Positions 24,534 to 58,162 of a DNA stretch of 64,000 nt are shown here, in pieces. The notes beneath the pieces are model-generated. The model saw nothing but the letters and a program-made list of their open reading frames with translations, was not told where the DNA came from and did no database searches. The translations under genes and the position numbers were made by a program. Where the stretch lies: positions 27,221-91,220 of the forward strand of contig JAKOVA010000182.1 of assembly GCA_029782335.1 (NCBI GenBank). Direction: 5' to 3'. The stretch is from Actinomycetes bacterium. Lineage in GTDB: Bacteria; Actinomycetota; Acidimicrobiia; Acidimicrobiales; Microtrichaceae. Each line of letters begins with the position of its first letter. Positions within the stretch are counted from its first letter, which is position 1.

Positions 24534-25739
24534 CTACGAAAGCCGCTCGATGATCATCGCCATGCCCTGGCCGCCGCCGACGCACATGGACTCCATGCCG
24601 AAGGTCTTGTCGGATTCTTGGAGGTTGTGAATCAGGGTCGTCATGATTCGGGCGCCGGTCATACCGAAGGGATGGCCGATGGCGATCGCGCCACCGCGGG
24701 TGTTGAGCTTGTCCCAACTGATCCCGAGGTGCTTGGCCGAGGGGATGACCTGCGCGGCGAACGCCTCGTTGATCTCCACGAGGTCGATGTCGTCGATGGT
24801 CATCTTCGCTCGAGCCATCGCCTGACGGCAGGCCTCGATCGGTCCGAGACCCATGATTTCGGGGTTGAGGCCCGACACGCCGGAGGCGACGATGCGGGCA
24901 AGCGGCGTGAGGCCGAGCTCCTTCGCCTTGGTGTCGCTCATGACGACGACCGCCGCGGCGCCGTCGTTGAGGGGACAGGCGTTACCGGCGGTGACCGAAC
25001 CCTCGGGCTTGAAGGCCGGCTTCAGATTGGCGAGACCCTCGGCGGTGGTGCCGGGGCGGATGCCGTCGTCGGTCGACACGACGGTGCCGTCGGGAAGGGT
25101 CACCGGGGTGATCTCCATCTCCCAGAACCCGTTCTCGAGCGACTCGGTCGCCCGCTGTTGGGACTGAGCGGCGTACTCGTCTTGTTCCTGACGGCTCACC
25201 TGCTCGAACTCGGCGACGTTCTCGGCGGTCTGACCCATGGCGATGTACACGTCGGGGAGGCCGGCCGGTGGCGTCCATGCGCCACCCTCGCCGGCGCCAC
25301 GACTCGCGGTGCGGGCCATCGCATCGGCGAAGCGCTCGTTGGTGGGCCCGTCGTCGGCCATCCCGTTGATGAATCGCGAGACGGTCTCAACGCCGGCCGA
25401 CACGAAGATGTCGCCTTCTCCGGCGCGGATGGCGTGTGCCGCCATGCGGATGGTCTGCAACGAGGAGGAGCAGTAGCGGTTCACCGTGACGCCGGGGACC
25501 TCAGGCATTCCCGAGAGGACGGCCACAACTCGGCCGATGTTCACCCCGGCCTCACCGGCAGGCTGGCCGCAACCCATCATGAGGTCCTCGACGAGATTGC
25601 GGTCGAGGGCCGGGATCTTCGCGAGCGCGGCGTCGACGATCTGTGCAGCAAGGTCGTCAGGGCGGATCGTCGTGAGCGAACCCTTCATCGCGCGGCCAAT
25701 CGGGCTGCGGGCGGTCGAGACGATGACGGCTTCGGGCAT
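24534..25739 (-). CDS. acetyl-CoA C-acyltransferase (thiolase)
   Basis: 401-aa ORF. Motifs present: [34 protein letters not shown]. Confidence 0.9.
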
Positions 25740-25846
25740 GACGGTCCCCTCCGGGTGGCGTTCGTGAACCGGCCGACGCTACCGATCGGTGGCGAACCTC
25801 GGCCAGTCAATCGCTCCTGGCGCACACTCCCGATCTCCTCCCACCG

Positions 25847-25872
25847 CCCCGGATTTCCCCGCGCCCCGCCCC
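25847..25872 (-). other. G-quadruplex-type tract on the minus strand (GGGG-C-GGGG-CGC-GGGG-AAATCC-GGGG)
   Basis: The plus strand reads CCCC GGATTT CCCC GCG CCCC G CCCC. It is part of three CCCCGCCCCG-type direct repeats (25844-25890), about 110-150 nt upstream of the thiolase start. Confidence 0.35.
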
Positions 25873-25892
25873 GGATCTCACCCCGCCCCGTC

Positions 25893-26098
25893 CCGAACTT
25901 GCGGACGTTTCCGTCGTTGGGGGTCGGTTTTGTACGCAGGTTCGGCGGGTAGGTGCCCGCTCGTTCCGAACTTGCGGACGTTTCCGTCGTTGGGGGTCGG
26001 TTTTGTACGCAGGTTGCCGGGTGGGTGCCCGCTCGTTCCGAACTTGCGGACGTTTCCGTCGTTGGCGGTCGGTTTTGTACGCAGGTTCGGCGGGGTTG
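25893..26098. repeat. 72-73 bp tandem repeat x3 with conserved internal hairpins (REP/MIRU-like)
   Basis: Units start at 25893, 25966 and 26038. The 50-nt core CCGAACTTGCGGACGTTTCCGTCGTTGGGGGTCGGTTTTGTACGCAGGTT is identical in units 1-2 and has one change in unit 3. The array lies in the gap between the MaoC and thiolase genes. Confidence 0.9.
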
Positions 26099-26121
26099 GG
26101 AAGACCGGCGGCGCCGACCGC

Positions 26122-26577
26122 CTACGGGAAGAAGCGGCTGATCGTCTCGGCGACGCACGCCGGCCTGTCGCCGCCTTCGACTTCGACGGTCACCCGGACC
26201 ACCACCTGGACACCCTCGCCGATCTGTTCGGCGGACACGATCTCGCCCGTGGCCCGGATCTGGCTTCCTGACGGCACCGGTGCGGGGAAGCGCACCTTGC
26301 CGAGCCCGACGTTCACCCCCATCGAGGTGTTGTCGACCGTGACCAGTTCCGGAAGGAAGAGGTTGACGAGGGACAACGTGAGATAGCCGTGGGCGATCGT
26401 CGTGCCGAACGGCCCTTCCTTCGCTCGCTCGACGTCCACGTGGATCCACTGATGATCGCCGGTCGCTTCAGCGAAGCGGTCGATACGGGCCTGGTCGACG
26501 GTGACCCACTCGGTTGGGCCGAGTTGCTCGCCGACGTGGGTCGTGATCGCGGCGGGGCCGTCGATGTGGAGGGTCAC
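26122..26577 (-). CDS. MaoC-like (R)-specific enoyl-CoA hydratase, hotdog fold
   Basis: ORF 26122..27024 trimmed to GTG at 26577, which overlaps the upstream gene's stop (GTGA at 26574-26577). Sequence RIDRFAEATGDHQWIHVDVERAKEGPFGTTIAHGYL. Confidence 0.85.
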   Translation of the reverse strand: MTLHIDGPAAITTHVGEQLGPTEWVTVDQARIDRFAEATGDHQWIHVDVERAKEGPFGTTIAHGYLTLSLVNLFLPELVTVDNTSMGVNVGLGKVRFPAPVPSGSQIRATGEIVSAEQIGEGVQVVVRVTVEVEGGDRPACVAETISRFFP

Positions 26578-26921
26578 GGTTCGATCTCCTTCTGCAGCGC
26601 CGCCTGGCACTCGTCGTCGTTGGCGGCGATGATCCGTTGCACCTTGGCAGGCGACCCCTTGATCGCCTCGAGCTCGTCGCGGTGCGCTTCGATGACGTCG
26701 TAGATGCAGTTCGCGTACGAAGTAATGGCCGCACCGTGGCCCTTCGCCTTGTCCCGAAGTTGCACTTTCATCGCCGCGACCGTCTTGTTCACGTACTCGG
26801 CGCGAGTGTCGAGCTTGCCGTCGGTGCCGTCCGAGCAGCTCGGTGCGACCGCCACCACGAGGGCGAGCGTCGCGAACAACAGCGCGAGCGGCAGGGAACG
26901 GACACGGCGGTGCACGACCAC
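26574..26921 (-). CDS. small putative lipoprotein, unknown function
   Basis: Signal and lipobox LALLFATLALVVAVAPSC. Start is uncertain: GTG at 26921 is preferred because ATG at 26975 would overlap the helicase 3' end. Confidence 0.55.
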   Translation of the reverse strand: MVVHRRVRSLPLALLFATLALVVAVAPSCSDGTDGKLDTRAEYVNKTVAAMKVQLRDKAKGHGAAITSYANCIYDVIEAHRDELEAIKGSPAKVQRIIAANDDECQAALQKEIEP

Positions 26922-26947
26922 AGTGTCTCGTCTCAAGACCTCGTCGC

Positions 26948-28594
26948 TCAACCGAGTCGACCTCCGCGAAGCCACTTGTTCGCGGCGTCGAGCCGACGTT
27001 GCAGCTGCTCGTTGGTGGCCTCACTCACCTTCGCGATACCGGCGAGGCGGTTGAGCTCGGCATTCACCTGCCGATGATCCATCGGGGTGAACCGCACGAG
27101 TTCGGCGACGGCGTCGGCGTTGTGCTTCCGAAGGGCGGCGCGGCGTTGGCGAGGGGTCAACGGCGTCTCGTCCCCGTGGGAGCGGTCGTTCGACGACGAC
27201 GCGGCAGGAAGGTCGATTCGCACGTCCAACGCGGCGTCGTCGTCTGCGTCGGGCTCCCACTCGTCATCATCGAGATCGAAGATCGAGGTCACCTCGTGGT
27301 CGTGTGCGACAGCGGAGATCACCGAGAACAGTGAGAGCTGTTCACCGTCGTCGTCGGCTCGCTCGGCAGCGTCCCGATCGTCGAGCGCGGCATCGTCGGG
27401 GAGCGGGTCCTCCCCGCCGCCGCCACGGGCGCGTGAATGACGGCGCTGCTCTGCGATGCCCGCCGCCCATCGTCGGAGCCGCGGATCGTCGGGAATGAAG
27501 AGGAACGCCCGCTGGGAGCGGACCCCTCTCGTCCAGCGCACCAGGCGGCCCACTGCTTGGCGGAAGAACAGCTCCGTGGTCGTGTTCGTCGCGAAAACTC
27601 CGACTCGCAGACGCGGGATGTCCACGCCCTCCGACACCATCCGGACGGCAACGATCCAGCGGTCGGTGCCGGCAGCGAAGCGAGCGATCTTCGTGGAAGC
27701 GAGCGGATCGTCGGAGACGGCAACCGTCGCGTTCACCCCACAGGAGCGCCGCAGGATCGCCGCGATTCCGTTGGCGTGTGCCTGGTCGATCGCGATGACG
27801 AGGCCCGCCGCGTCGGGATGGTGCCGGCGAATCTCGTTGAGCCGGGAGTTCGCGTCGATCAGGACGCTTCGCAGCCAGTCGCCTTCGAGAGACAAGGCGG
27901 TCCGGAGTCGCTGGTTCGCGCGCTGGCGATCGAGTTCGTCGTCGAAGGCGGCGGAGACCGTCTCGCCGACGTGATCGACCCACTCCATGTGGCCGCCGAC
28001 CCGGGGGAAATAGACGGGGCGGACAACGCCCCGGTCGACGAGCGCCTCGCCGTAGCCGTACTCGAAATCGGGTCGGGCTTCGTCGAGGTGATACTCGACG
28101 AACGGAATGGAGGAGGTGTCGGAACGGAACGGCGTCCCCGACAACGCCAGACGTCGCGTCGCGGGCTCGAACGCTTCGAGCACGGCAGAACCCCACACTC
28201 GGTCGTCGCCGGCGTGGTGCAGTTCGTCGAGCACGACGAAGGAACCCGCCGCGAGCGTGCGCAACACGGCCGCGGAGGTGGCGACTTGTTGGTAGGTCGT
28301 CACGATGCCGTGTACGTCGCCGGGGAGCGACCCGTCGCGTGCCGACCACTCCGGTTCGAGGTGCAGTCCGAGGCGATCACCAGCGGCCGCCCACTGGTGC
28401 TTGAGGTGCTGGGTGGGTGCAACAACCACGACCCGGCGAACCTGTCGATCGGCGAGCGCCTGCGCGGCAGCCGTGAGCGCGAACGTGGTTTTGCCTGCGC
28501 CGGGCGTTGCGACCGCGAGAAAGTCCGGCCGATCAGTCGCCGCGAGCTGATCGAGGGCGCGGCGCTGCCAGGGTCGCAGTCGAATGGTCGCCAT
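26948..28594 (-). CDS. superfamily 2 DEAD/DEAH-box helicase (ResIII-type N-terminal domain)
   Basis: ORF trimmed to ATG at 28594 (MATIRLRPWQRRALDQL). Walker A TPGAGKTT, DELH box VVLDELHHAG, SGTPFR, and helicase-C part VRMVSEGVDIPRL...FRQAVGRLVR. Acidic linker and helical C-terminal tail. Confidence 0.85.
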   Translation of the reverse strand: MATIRLRPWQRRALDQLAATDRPDFLAVATPGAGKTTFALTAAAQALADRQVRRVVVVAPTQHLKHQWAAAGDRLGLHLEPEWSARDGSLPGDVHGIVTTYQQVATSAAVLRTLAAGSFVVLDELHHAGDDRVWGSAVLEAFEPATRRLALSGTPFRSDTSSIPFVEYHLDEARPDFEYGYGEALVDRGVVRPVYFPRVGGHMEWVDHVGETVSAAFDDELDRQRANQRLRTALSLEGDWLRSVLIDANSRLNEIRRHHPDAAGLVIAIDQAHANGIAAILRRSCGVNATVAVSDDPLASTKIARFAAGTDRWIVAVRMVSEGVDIPRLRVGVFATNTTTELFFRQAVGRLVRWTRGVRSQRAFLFIPDDPRLRRWAAGIAEQRRHSRARGGGGEDPLPDDAALDDRDAAERADDDGEQLSLFSVISAVAHDHEVTSIFDLDDDEWEPDADDDAALDVRIDLPAASSSNDRSHGDETPLTPRQRRAALRKHNADAVAELVRFTPMDHRQVNAELNRLAGIAKVSEATNEQLQRRLDAANKWLRGGRLG

Positions 28595-57122: not shown

Positions 57123-58046
57123 GTGGCTCGGGGATGCGCCATTGTTGTCGTCGTGGACGACTCCTCGACGAACACGGTGCTGCGGAACACGATCGCCGCC
57201 TTCGATCCGACCGCCGGCCTCGCCGCCCGCCGAGTCGCCCTCGAGGAGGTCGAGGTCTCCGTGCTCGAGTCAGGCCACGGTGGACGTCCGTTGTTGTTGG
57301 TTCACGGGTTCACCGGCTCGAAGGAGGACTTCGGCGCCGAGGTGGTGCGGTTCGCCGAGCTCGGATTCCACGTCGTCGCGCCCGACCATCGAGGCCATGG
57401 CGCCAGCGATCAACCCGACGACGAGGCGGCCTACGGATTCGACATCTTCGCTGCCGATCTCATCGCCCTCGCGAACGTGCTCGGCTGGGAGCGATTCGAT
57501 GTTGTCGGTCACTCCATGGGCGGGATGATCGTCCAGCGGCTCGCATTGGTTCACCCCGAACGCATTGACCGCGTGGTGCTGATGGACACCCATCACGGGG
57601 CCGCCGGCGAGTTGGATCCCGACGTGGTCGAACTGGGAACCCAGCTCGCTCGGACACAGGGCCTCAGGGTGATCCACGAGATCCTGCGATCGGGCGCGGA
57701 TCCGTTGGCGAACCCGGCGTACCAGCGCCTCTGTGACACCGTCGAGGGGTACGAGGCGTGGTGCGATGCGAAGTTCCTCGCCTGTTCGCCGGCCATGTTC
57801 GCCACGATGCTGCGGACCTTTCACGAGACGGCAGATCGCCTCGAGGAGCTTCGGCTGATCGGTGCGCCGACGCTCGTTGTGGTGGGCGAACTCGACGAGC
57901 CGTTCCGGGCGGCTTCGGAGCGGATGGCAGCGACGATCCCCGACGCGCAACTGGTCGTGATCCCCGGTGGAGGTCACTGTCCCCAGTTCGAGGCCACCGA
58001 GGCGTGGCGTGCGGCCCTCGACGAGTTCCTCCTCGCCGACCGCTGA
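57123..58046 (+). CDS. alpha/beta hydrolase
   Basis: LLLVHGFTGSKEDF, nucleophile elbow GHSMGG, and C-terminal GGGHCPQ. Start is uncertain: GTG at 57123 or the downstream GTG near 57151. Confidence 0.85.
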   Translation: MARGCAIVVVVDDSSTNTVLRNTIAAFDPTAGLAARRVALEEVEVSVLESGHGGRPLLLVHGFTGSKEDFGAEVVRFAELGFHVVAPDHRGHGASDQPDDEAAYGFDIFAADLIALANVLGWERFDVVGHSMGGMIVQRLALVHPERIDRVVLMDTHHGAAGELDPDVVELGTQLARTQGLRVIHEILRSGADPLANPAYQRLCDTVEGYEAWCDAKFLACSPAMFATMLRTFHETADRLEELRLIGAPTLVVVGELDEPFRAASERMAATIPDAQLVVIPGGGHCPQFEATEAWRAALDEFLLADR

Positions 58047-58050
58047 CCTC

Positions 58051-58110
58051 CCGACCGCACCCCTCCCGACCGCACCCCTCCCGACCGCACCCCTCCCGAC
58101 CGCACCCCTC
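58051..58110. repeat. 15-bp tandem repeat x4 (CCGACCGCACCCCTC)
   Basis: Four perfect copies, read directly. They start 5 nt after the hydrolase stop. Confidence 0.95.
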
Positions 58111-58162
58111 CCGAACTTTGGGTCCTCCGTCCCGAATTCGGCACGCTCGACCCAAAGTTCGG
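58111..58162. terminator. perfect 14-bp inverted repeat CCGAACTTTGGGTC...GACCCAAAGTTCGG with a nested CCGAATTCGG palindrome (bidirectional terminator / REP-like element)
   Basis: Read directly. Lies between the convergent hydrolase (+) and ABC permease (-) genes. The 24-nt loop contains a 10-bp palindrome at 58132-58141. Confidence 0.55.

Follow-up and report, generated by a model that had tools for sequence, protein, structure and literature searches.

Short REP-like repeats are among the commonest noncoding features of bacterial genomes. Two of the described kinds, the REPs of Escherichia coli and the mycobacterial TRIT motif, have been ascribed RNA-level roles in cis, the latter consisting of repeated GC-rich hairpins that follow stop codons at the 3' ends of Mycobacterium genes. 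The MIRUs, in turn, are oriented with the operon in which they lie, and their short frames overlap the stop and start codons of the flanking genes. To our knowledge, the only established route by which REPs multiply is through the RAYT transposases, described mainly from Proteobacteria. REPs are 20 to 40 bp long, with a GTAG or CGTC tag left unpaired at one end (PMC3733652), and their stems measure 5 to 13 bp (PMC3116915, PMC3337134, PMC3733652).

Here we analyze a tandem array that lies between a MaoC-like dehydratase gene and a thiolase gene in a 64,000-nt stretch of DNA (the window, positions 27221 to 91220 of contig C55) from a metagenome-assembled genome (MAG) of Acidimicrobiia (Microthrixaceae; 3.19 Mb, 310 contigs, 75% completeness, 67.5% G+C), hereafter the source MAG. 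The array probably arose by insertion and local amplification of a REP-like selfish palindromic repeat, termed F1, which occupies intergenic regions in Microthrixaceae and some other Acidimicrobiia. F1 and the REP/BIME/REPIN-RAYT systems of Proteobacteria have several properties in common: (i) short palindromes are present in tens of intergenic copies, which are clustered and favor gene 3' ends; (ii) the repeats are lineage specific and vary between species; (iii) copies flank a single-copy cognate gene; and (iv) occasional copies lie in frame within replication or repair genes. In contrast to REPs, however, F1 has a 53-nt core with a 24-bp stem and is devoid of the unpaired GTAG or CGTC tag; the gene that it flanks encodes a wHTH-DUF559 nuclease and not a Y1_Tnp (RAYT) protein; and its clusters are head-to-tail arrays and not the inverted doublets of REPINs. 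F1 therefore works like REP/REPIN but fails the defining features of size, GTAG/CGTC tag, Y1 transposase, and inverted doublets (PMC3733652, PMC3116915).

The original prediction likened the array to MIRU or REP-type elements, of which the REP-type dispersed element holds and membership of the MIRUs does not. Compared by description, MIRUs and the F1 array are both made of tandem 50- to 100-bp units in actinobacterial intergenic DNA, with copy numbers that probably vary by slippage, but F1 has a period of 73/72 nt and is found in convergent as well as divergent gaps; its units are palindromic hairpins that occur in either orientation and follow no frame logic, so MIRU membership is unsupported. 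Set against the general description of TRIT, F1 differs in sequence and lineage, extends to promoter regions as well, and occurs as pairs around a nuclease gene. The integron attC sites are comparable only in how they work: each is an imperfect palindrome whose conserved ends contain AAC...GTT and whose center varies in sequence but keeps its pairing, and internal mismatches distinguish the two strands, whereas F1 has no integrase, cassette array, or common orientation and is dispersed among housekeeping genes.

Structure of the array in the MaoC-thiolase gap

Within the window, Tandem Repeats Finder delimits the array at 25889 to 26094 (period, 72; 2.8 copies; 94% matches; score, 377). The three tandem 72- to 73-bp units with a shared 50-nt core that had been described for this locus were reproduced, with matches to the core beginning at 25893, 25966, and 26038 (0, 0, and 1 mismatches, respectively) and none in 100 shuffles. 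The units run head to tail at a spacing of 72 to 73 nt, and each contains a 53-nt imperfect palindrome as its core. The features of the locus, in order of position, are as follows.

24534 to 25739, minus strand: thiolase gene, downstream of the array
25778 to 25793, no strand assigned: operator-like palindrome GCTACCGATCGGTGGC, upstream of the thiolase start, placed by comparison with orthologous gaps
25844 to 25895, plus strand: C-rich 22-bp tandem repeat, 2.4 copies, adjoining the 5' side of the array
25893 to 25945, plus strand: F1 unit 1, 53-nt imperfect-palindrome core (CCGAACTTGCG...CGCAGGTTCGG), 74.2 bits with the R1 covariance model
25946 to 25965, plus strand: linker 1 (CGGGTAGGTGCCCGCTCGTT)
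25966 to 26018, plus strand: F1 unit 2 core, 63.9 bits with R1
26019 to 26037, plus strand: linker 2
26038 to 26090, plus strand: F1 unit 3 core, 71.4 bits with R1
26122 to 27024, minus strand: MaoC-like dehydratase gene, with its TAG stop codon at 26122 to 26124, 31 nt from unit 3

Each unit had been expected to form an 11-bp outer stem (CCGAACTTGCG with CGCAGGTTCGG, including one T.G pair). This stands for units 1 and 3 but not for unit 2, whose 3' terminal triplet is GCC as opposed to CGG and whose outer stem is cut to 8 bp; unit 3 differs by a single G-to-C change, which falls in the region of the loop. Of the two smaller hairpins noted earlier, GCGGG...CCCGC does occur, beginning at 25945 with the final G of unit 1, and GACG-TTTC-CGTC is likewise present in the sequence but is not kept in the F1 family, in which columns 16 to 19 vary. 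The GT-rich strand of unit 1 is the plus strand, on which the unit folds with -34.4 kcal/mol (z = -3.0 against shuffles) versus -24.1 kcal/mol on the minus strand, and the plus strand of the array, taken as single-stranded DNA, has a z score of -2.8. The fold of unit 2 shows no gain over shuffles (z = 0.06). On the mRNA-sense strand, single units give -24 and -18 kcal/mol, and the whole array folds no better than its shuffles (z = 0.09). The view of the array as noncoding and structured is supported.

Two other identities were considered for these palindromes and dropped: a LexA SOS box, suggested by the GAAC...GTTC termini, has half-sites 4 nt apart and not 45 nt as here, and the "spacers" of a supposed CRISPR would be 19 to 30 nt long and near-identical within an array.

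The gap that holds the array measures 382 nt. Metagenome contigs with an orthologous thiolase (83 to 91% identical) preserve the same MaoC-thiolase neighborhood. On four of them, the gap is 76 to 112 nt long and repeat-free, with nothing in it but a ribosome-binding site and a GTTACC-N4-GGTAAC palindrome, and on two others, a single hairpin of a different subfamily directly follows the MaoC stop codon. The exact thiolase protein returned no record in a search of other assemblies. The palindrome GCTACCGATCGGTGGC corresponds to the GTTACC-N4-GGTAAC motif of the orthologous gaps (loci L171 to L175 and L196), about 45 nt before the thiolase start. This palindrome is likely to be an operator, which makes a regulated promoter proper to the thiolase gene probable. 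The operator-like palindrome and the ribosome-binding site ahead of the thiolase gene make it more likely that the array separates two transcription units; hence, the array does lie between the MaoC-domain and thiolase genes, as proposed, but "intercistronic" is a doubtful term for the gap. Lying immediately behind the MaoC stop codon, with the thiolase control region still to follow, the array would act at most as a weak 3'-end stem-loop for the upstream transcript, a role that is possible but unsupported, and it may have no effect.

As a separate observation, the MaoC-thiolase gap of a related species (L165; Ga0182743_1007863) holds an unrelated tandem repeat of about 45 nt (CTCCGCTTCTTCGTGCTCCGT...), from which it appears that this gap gathers repeats repeatedly.

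F1 is a dispersed family of palindromes

A BLAST search with the repeat unit gave 36 matches in the source MAG, iterated nhmmer searches gave 38 distinct copies of the 53-nt core at 22 loci, and a covariance model gave about 40 copies. With about 40 copies here and the family present in many related genomes, the array is not a sequence lacking copies elsewhere. The original prediction asked whether such copies are always intergenic; according to a codon-usage gene caller trained on the MAG, they are so at 21 of the 22 loci. Ten of the loci are head-to-tail arrays of 2 to 5 units with periods of 71 to 91 nt, all units of any one array share one orientation, and inverted doublets do not occur. 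In the source MAG, a C-rich leader and a G-rich tail of about 8 nt accompany every copy, as such flanks do most members of the family, and partial duplications comprising the right arm plus tail trail many copies; a census of solo arms with 8-base patterns recovered mostly chance matches, together with partial "right arm plus G-tail" tandem duplications beside full copies. Short C-rich or G-rich tandem repeats adjoin F1 copies also on contigs C213 and C127.

A dnaE2-like gene outside the window (C129:60176-63616; 1146 aa) codes for PHP, Pol III alpha, finger, HHH_6, and OB-fold domains. Its frame stays open across two F1 units (period of 72 nt, or 24 codons) and about four 18-nt tail repeats, an insertion that separates the HHH from the OB domain without a shift of frame and reads ...SEVASDSVVEGRFSTQVREGSGV... 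twice, followed by REGSGV repeats.

Beyond the source MAG, most F1 members are single copies. The MAG SJ36 ("Microthrixaceae bacterium"), which belongs to the same genus, has 54 copies within the retrieved loci; a pattern scan that covered a single genome from each species also gave 10 copies in ant_bin.168 (Acidimicrobiia) and 14 in SMAG_U12272. Singletons occur in a few further Acidimicrobiia MAGs, and matches in unrelated phyla are single and chance-like. BLAST across 60 relatives was positive for F1 only in the genus mate; the R1 covariance model, built from 93 copies, was needed to reveal the wider family beyond the reach of BLAST and detected F1 in 28 of the 79 genomes from the taxonomic family, representing 16 of 33 genera. 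One of these 28, the complete genome G008 (4.66 Mb), has about 40 diverged members with tandem arrays of its own.

Two further observations concern arrays and assemblies. Another hairpin family (CCGAACTTGTACG...CGTACAAGTTCG) forms 5- to 6-unit arrays, their periods being about 67 to 100 nt, in regions 1153200-1153800 and 4633200-4633600 of G008 (C1; loci L159 and L160), so that tandem amplification of such palindromes is not confined to the source MAG. F1 copies lie about 100 to 600 nt from the ends of contigs C236, C289, C107, and C15 of the source MAG and C102, C80, C43, and C135 of SJ36, which suggests that short-read assemblies break at the repeats and that copy numbers are underestimated.

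Compensatory changes preserve the hairpin

Across the family, the F1 fold is a single 24-bp hairpin with a 5-nt loop, paired through the core to its ends (CCGAAC/GTTCGG), in which TGCG...CGCA is invariant and a CCG.C...G.CGG core is constant. An alignment restricted to the genus (A1) showed no covariation excess, with 74.4% of cells paired versus 74.2% after shuffling, and RNAalifold kept merely 6 invariant pairs in it. With 93 copies from nine MAGs, however, the covariation score was 0.226 against 0.145 ± 0.007 in shuffles, and double-sided changes numbered 241 against 151 ± 9.5. Neither value was reached in any of 500 shuffles, and slid partners scored far lower. Columns 17 to 22 with 40 to 45, 26 with 36, and 28 with 34 display three to six pair types each. 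Covariance analysis, which had been recommended as a check on the predicted structure, thus finds covariation across the nine MAGs but none beyond composition within the genus. The pairing of the hairpin is preserved via compensatory changes; the signal is partly inherited subfamily structure and shows maintenance, not how the hairpin is maintained.

Probable gains and decay, and growth of arrays in place

Two loci bear on how the copies arose. In addition to the MaoC-thiolase gap, clpC in the source MAG is accompanied by F1 both upstream (two units) and downstream, and these copies are absent from a genome of the same genus (ClpC 96% identical) and from two outgroup genomes of another genus. 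As the orthologous MaoC-thiolase and clpC intergenic regions are empty in relatives, parsimony points to lineage-specific gains, which we infer here from the comparison of species. Units are 93% identical within arrays versus 78% between loci, from which it follows that arrays grow in place after one insertion.

The copies of the source genome are also the most degenerate, retaining on average 14.8 of the 24 Watson-Crick pairs, compared with 18.1 in SJ36, 19.9 in SMAG_U12272, and 21.0 in ant_bin.168. The data fit two readings alike: F1 here may be an orphan population in decay, or it may be served in trans, possibly by the enzyme associated with a sister family that shares its termini (F2; see below).

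Palindrome pairs bracket wHTH-DUF559 nuclease genes

The Y1_Tnp domain of the RAYTs (PF01797) was absent from six repeat-bearing genomes in searches that did detect the positive controls. A different kind of gene was found between palindrome copies. The source MAG has four DUF559-like genes, each bracketed by palindromes and none (0 of 4) by F1. One of them (C55:3718-4683; 321 aa), located 22.5 kb upstream of the start of the window, matches AbiEi_4 and DUF559 and is exactly bracketed by two copies of F2 (C55:3600-4745) in direct and not inverted orientation; a different palindrome brackets each of the other three. F2 has the consensus CCGAACTTTGGGTC..CCCGAATTCGGG..GACCCAAAGTTCGG and at least 21 copies in the MAG, and it is like F1 in length, in its CCGAACTT/AAGTTCGG termini, and in its C/G-rich flanks. 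The window contains one copy.

58111 to 58162, no strand assigned: F2 copy (CCGAACTTTGGGTC..CCCGAATTCGG..GACCCAAAGTTCGG), with termini and length as in F1

A C-rich 15-bp microsatellite (CCTCCCGACCGCACC, 5.5 copies; 58031 to 58114) is fused to this F2 hairpin just past a gene end.

Bona fide F1 copies (48 to 60 bits) are found on both sides of a wHTH(AbiEi_4)-DUF559 gene in SMAG_U12272 and ant_bin.168. F1-like copies (CCGAAAcTGCGTGAGTTGCCGTCGC-loop-) bracket homologous genes in three genomes from two other genera, and the bracketing copies of G008 have an inner GTTTCCGTCG core in common with F1. The bracketed genes code for proteins of about 310 to 330 aa with AbiEi_4 and DUF559 domains, one gene being enclosed between two palindrome copies in each case. 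Given tens of copies among thousands of genes, the repeated bracketing of one gene family is not due to chance. In the literature that we searched, no paper connects DUF559 or AbiEi with REP, REPIN, or RAYT.

No F1-bracketed nuclease gene was found in the source MAG or SJ36, both of which are 75% complete; what F1 brackets in these two are genes for ClpC, a methyltransferase, and two membrane proteins. A gene of 1 kb that lies between repeats at which assemblies break may readily drop out of a bin, and the absence could reflect either incompleteness or real loss. Because the assembly holds no nuclease gene bracketed by F1 and its copies are more degenerate than any others, F1 in the source genome is probably orphaned or served in trans, with decay and replication slippage as its main present sources of change.

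Gene context and alternative explanations

The F1 loci of the source MAG include 5 in convergent, 3 in divergent, and 12 in codirectional gaps. Pooled over several genomes (n = 84), 33 are convergent, 40 codirectional, and 11 divergent, compared with a background by number of intergenic regions of 14.7, 70.5, and 14.7%, respectively. F1 is thus enriched about 2.7-fold in convergent gaps and is not enriched in divergent ones. That copies favor gene 3' ends would be expected equally of a terminator or stabilizer role and of tolerated insertion.

One might accordingly suppose that the hairpins have mainly an RNA-level function in cis, as terminators or as 3'-end protective stem-loops (stabilizers or insulators), their spread being secondary. 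We regard this as unlikely. The convergent enrichment and the many G008 copies that begin 15 to 30 nt past a stop codon speak for it, whereas 11 of the 84 loci lie in divergent, promoter-bearing gaps, including the one upstream of clpC, and two units lie in frame within the dnaE2-like gene. The array itself is suitably placed, 31 nt past the MaoC stop codon and upstream of the operator-like site of the thiolase gene, but the orthologous gaps function without a hairpin. The compensatory changes that keep the stem are also in favor of such a role, and against it stand the folding of the mRNA-sense strand, on which the array is at chance level, and the energies of the single units on that strand. 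The hairpins have no U-tract, and a scan for intrinsic terminators found only one weak site, within a unit and on the nontranscribed strand, at chance level. Finally, the bracketing of nuclease genes is left unexplained by a cis-acting RNA function.

It is very improbable that F1 is a MITE, notwithstanding its conserved termini (CCGAACTTGCG/CGCAAGTTCGG), its intergenic copies, and the differences in its presence between species. Direct repeats around 76 copies, sought as target-site duplications of 3 to 6 bp at offsets of 0 to 11, matched the shuffled controls. F1 is palindromic throughout and not at its ends alone, and at 53 nt, it is far below the usual sizes of MITEs. The 75%-complete MAG showed no insertion sequence that could be the parent of F1 by its terminal inverted repeats, nor was any longer element with F1 termini seen except for the nuclease cassette. 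Slippage, and not repeated insertion, is what the identical linkers of the head-to-tail arrays suggest.

The original prediction drew attention to a strand asymmetry, namely, a G-U pair on the plus strand opposite a C-A mismatch on the minus strand, as a hint of function as plus-strand RNA or at the DNA level. The asymmetry is real in all copies of the source genome, which have 2.34 G.T pairs versus 0.16 A.C mismatches per copy and a G+T content of 65%, but other genomes show next to none of it (0.5 versus 0.4 and 0.86 versus 0.79). Within codirectional gaps of the source MAG, the GT-rich strand is sense in 8 cases and antisense in 4, and copies also lie in convergent and divergent gaps. Being genome-wide in the source genome, nearly absent elsewhere, and without fixed orientation, the G.T excess appears to be inherited from a GT-rich founder copy, and the occurrence of F1 in either orientation relative to its neighbors argues against a plus-strand RNA, a function that is accordingly not upheld. 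That the array gives rise to a stable small RNA, read from the plus strand and antisense to the MaoC-thiolase transcript, is hardly credible: the better folding of the plus strand (unit 1 and the array as a whole) and the G.T excess favor it, but a promoter scan finds no promoter-like site, matches to Rfam over 25500 to 26400 (E <= 10) include nothing relevant and are at chance level only, the fold of unit 2 is likewise at chance level, the GT-rich strand has no fixed relation to neighboring genes, the asymmetry does not extend to the copies of other genomes, and tandem copy number and linkers vary freely across loci.

A possible partnership between palindromes and nucleases

We return to the reading of the array as an insertion of a selfish, REP-like palindrome that was amplified locally; in this genome, it looks like a worn, locally duplicated copy and not like an RNA gene. 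Counting against this reading are the direct orientation of the F2 copies around their nuclease gene, the failure to find an F1-bracketed nuclease gene in the source MAG and SJ36, and the lack of excess covariation within the genus. How such palindromes multiply may be approached by analogy with the RAYTs. The wHTH-DUF559 nuclease would bind and cut the extruded F1 hairpin or its CCGAACTT/AAGTTCGG termini, and this cutting would seed new copies, as RAYT does for REP/REPIN. We tentatively propose, rating this at somewhat less than an even chance, that F1 and its sister families are nonautonomous partners of single-copy wHTH-DUF559 nucleases, with one palindrome family for each paralog, and that they form an independent counterpart of the REPIN-RAYT system with an enzyme of the restriction endonuclease fold. 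F1 in the source genome would then be an orphan whose enzyme has been lost and which is decaying and expanding only by tandem slippage.

Implications

F1 has practical consequences for the genomes that carry it. It appears to break MAG assemblies, with several copies at contig ends, and it can mislead annotation by extending open frames and by lying in frame within genes such as the dnaE2-like gene. More broadly, F1 represents a long-hairpin family from an uncultured actinobacterial lineage that behaves like the REPs and yet has an unrelated nuclease as its partner. If the enzyme truly maintains the repeats, similar partnerships between hosts and repeats would have more than one origin, and a testable role would fall to a large "domain of unknown function."
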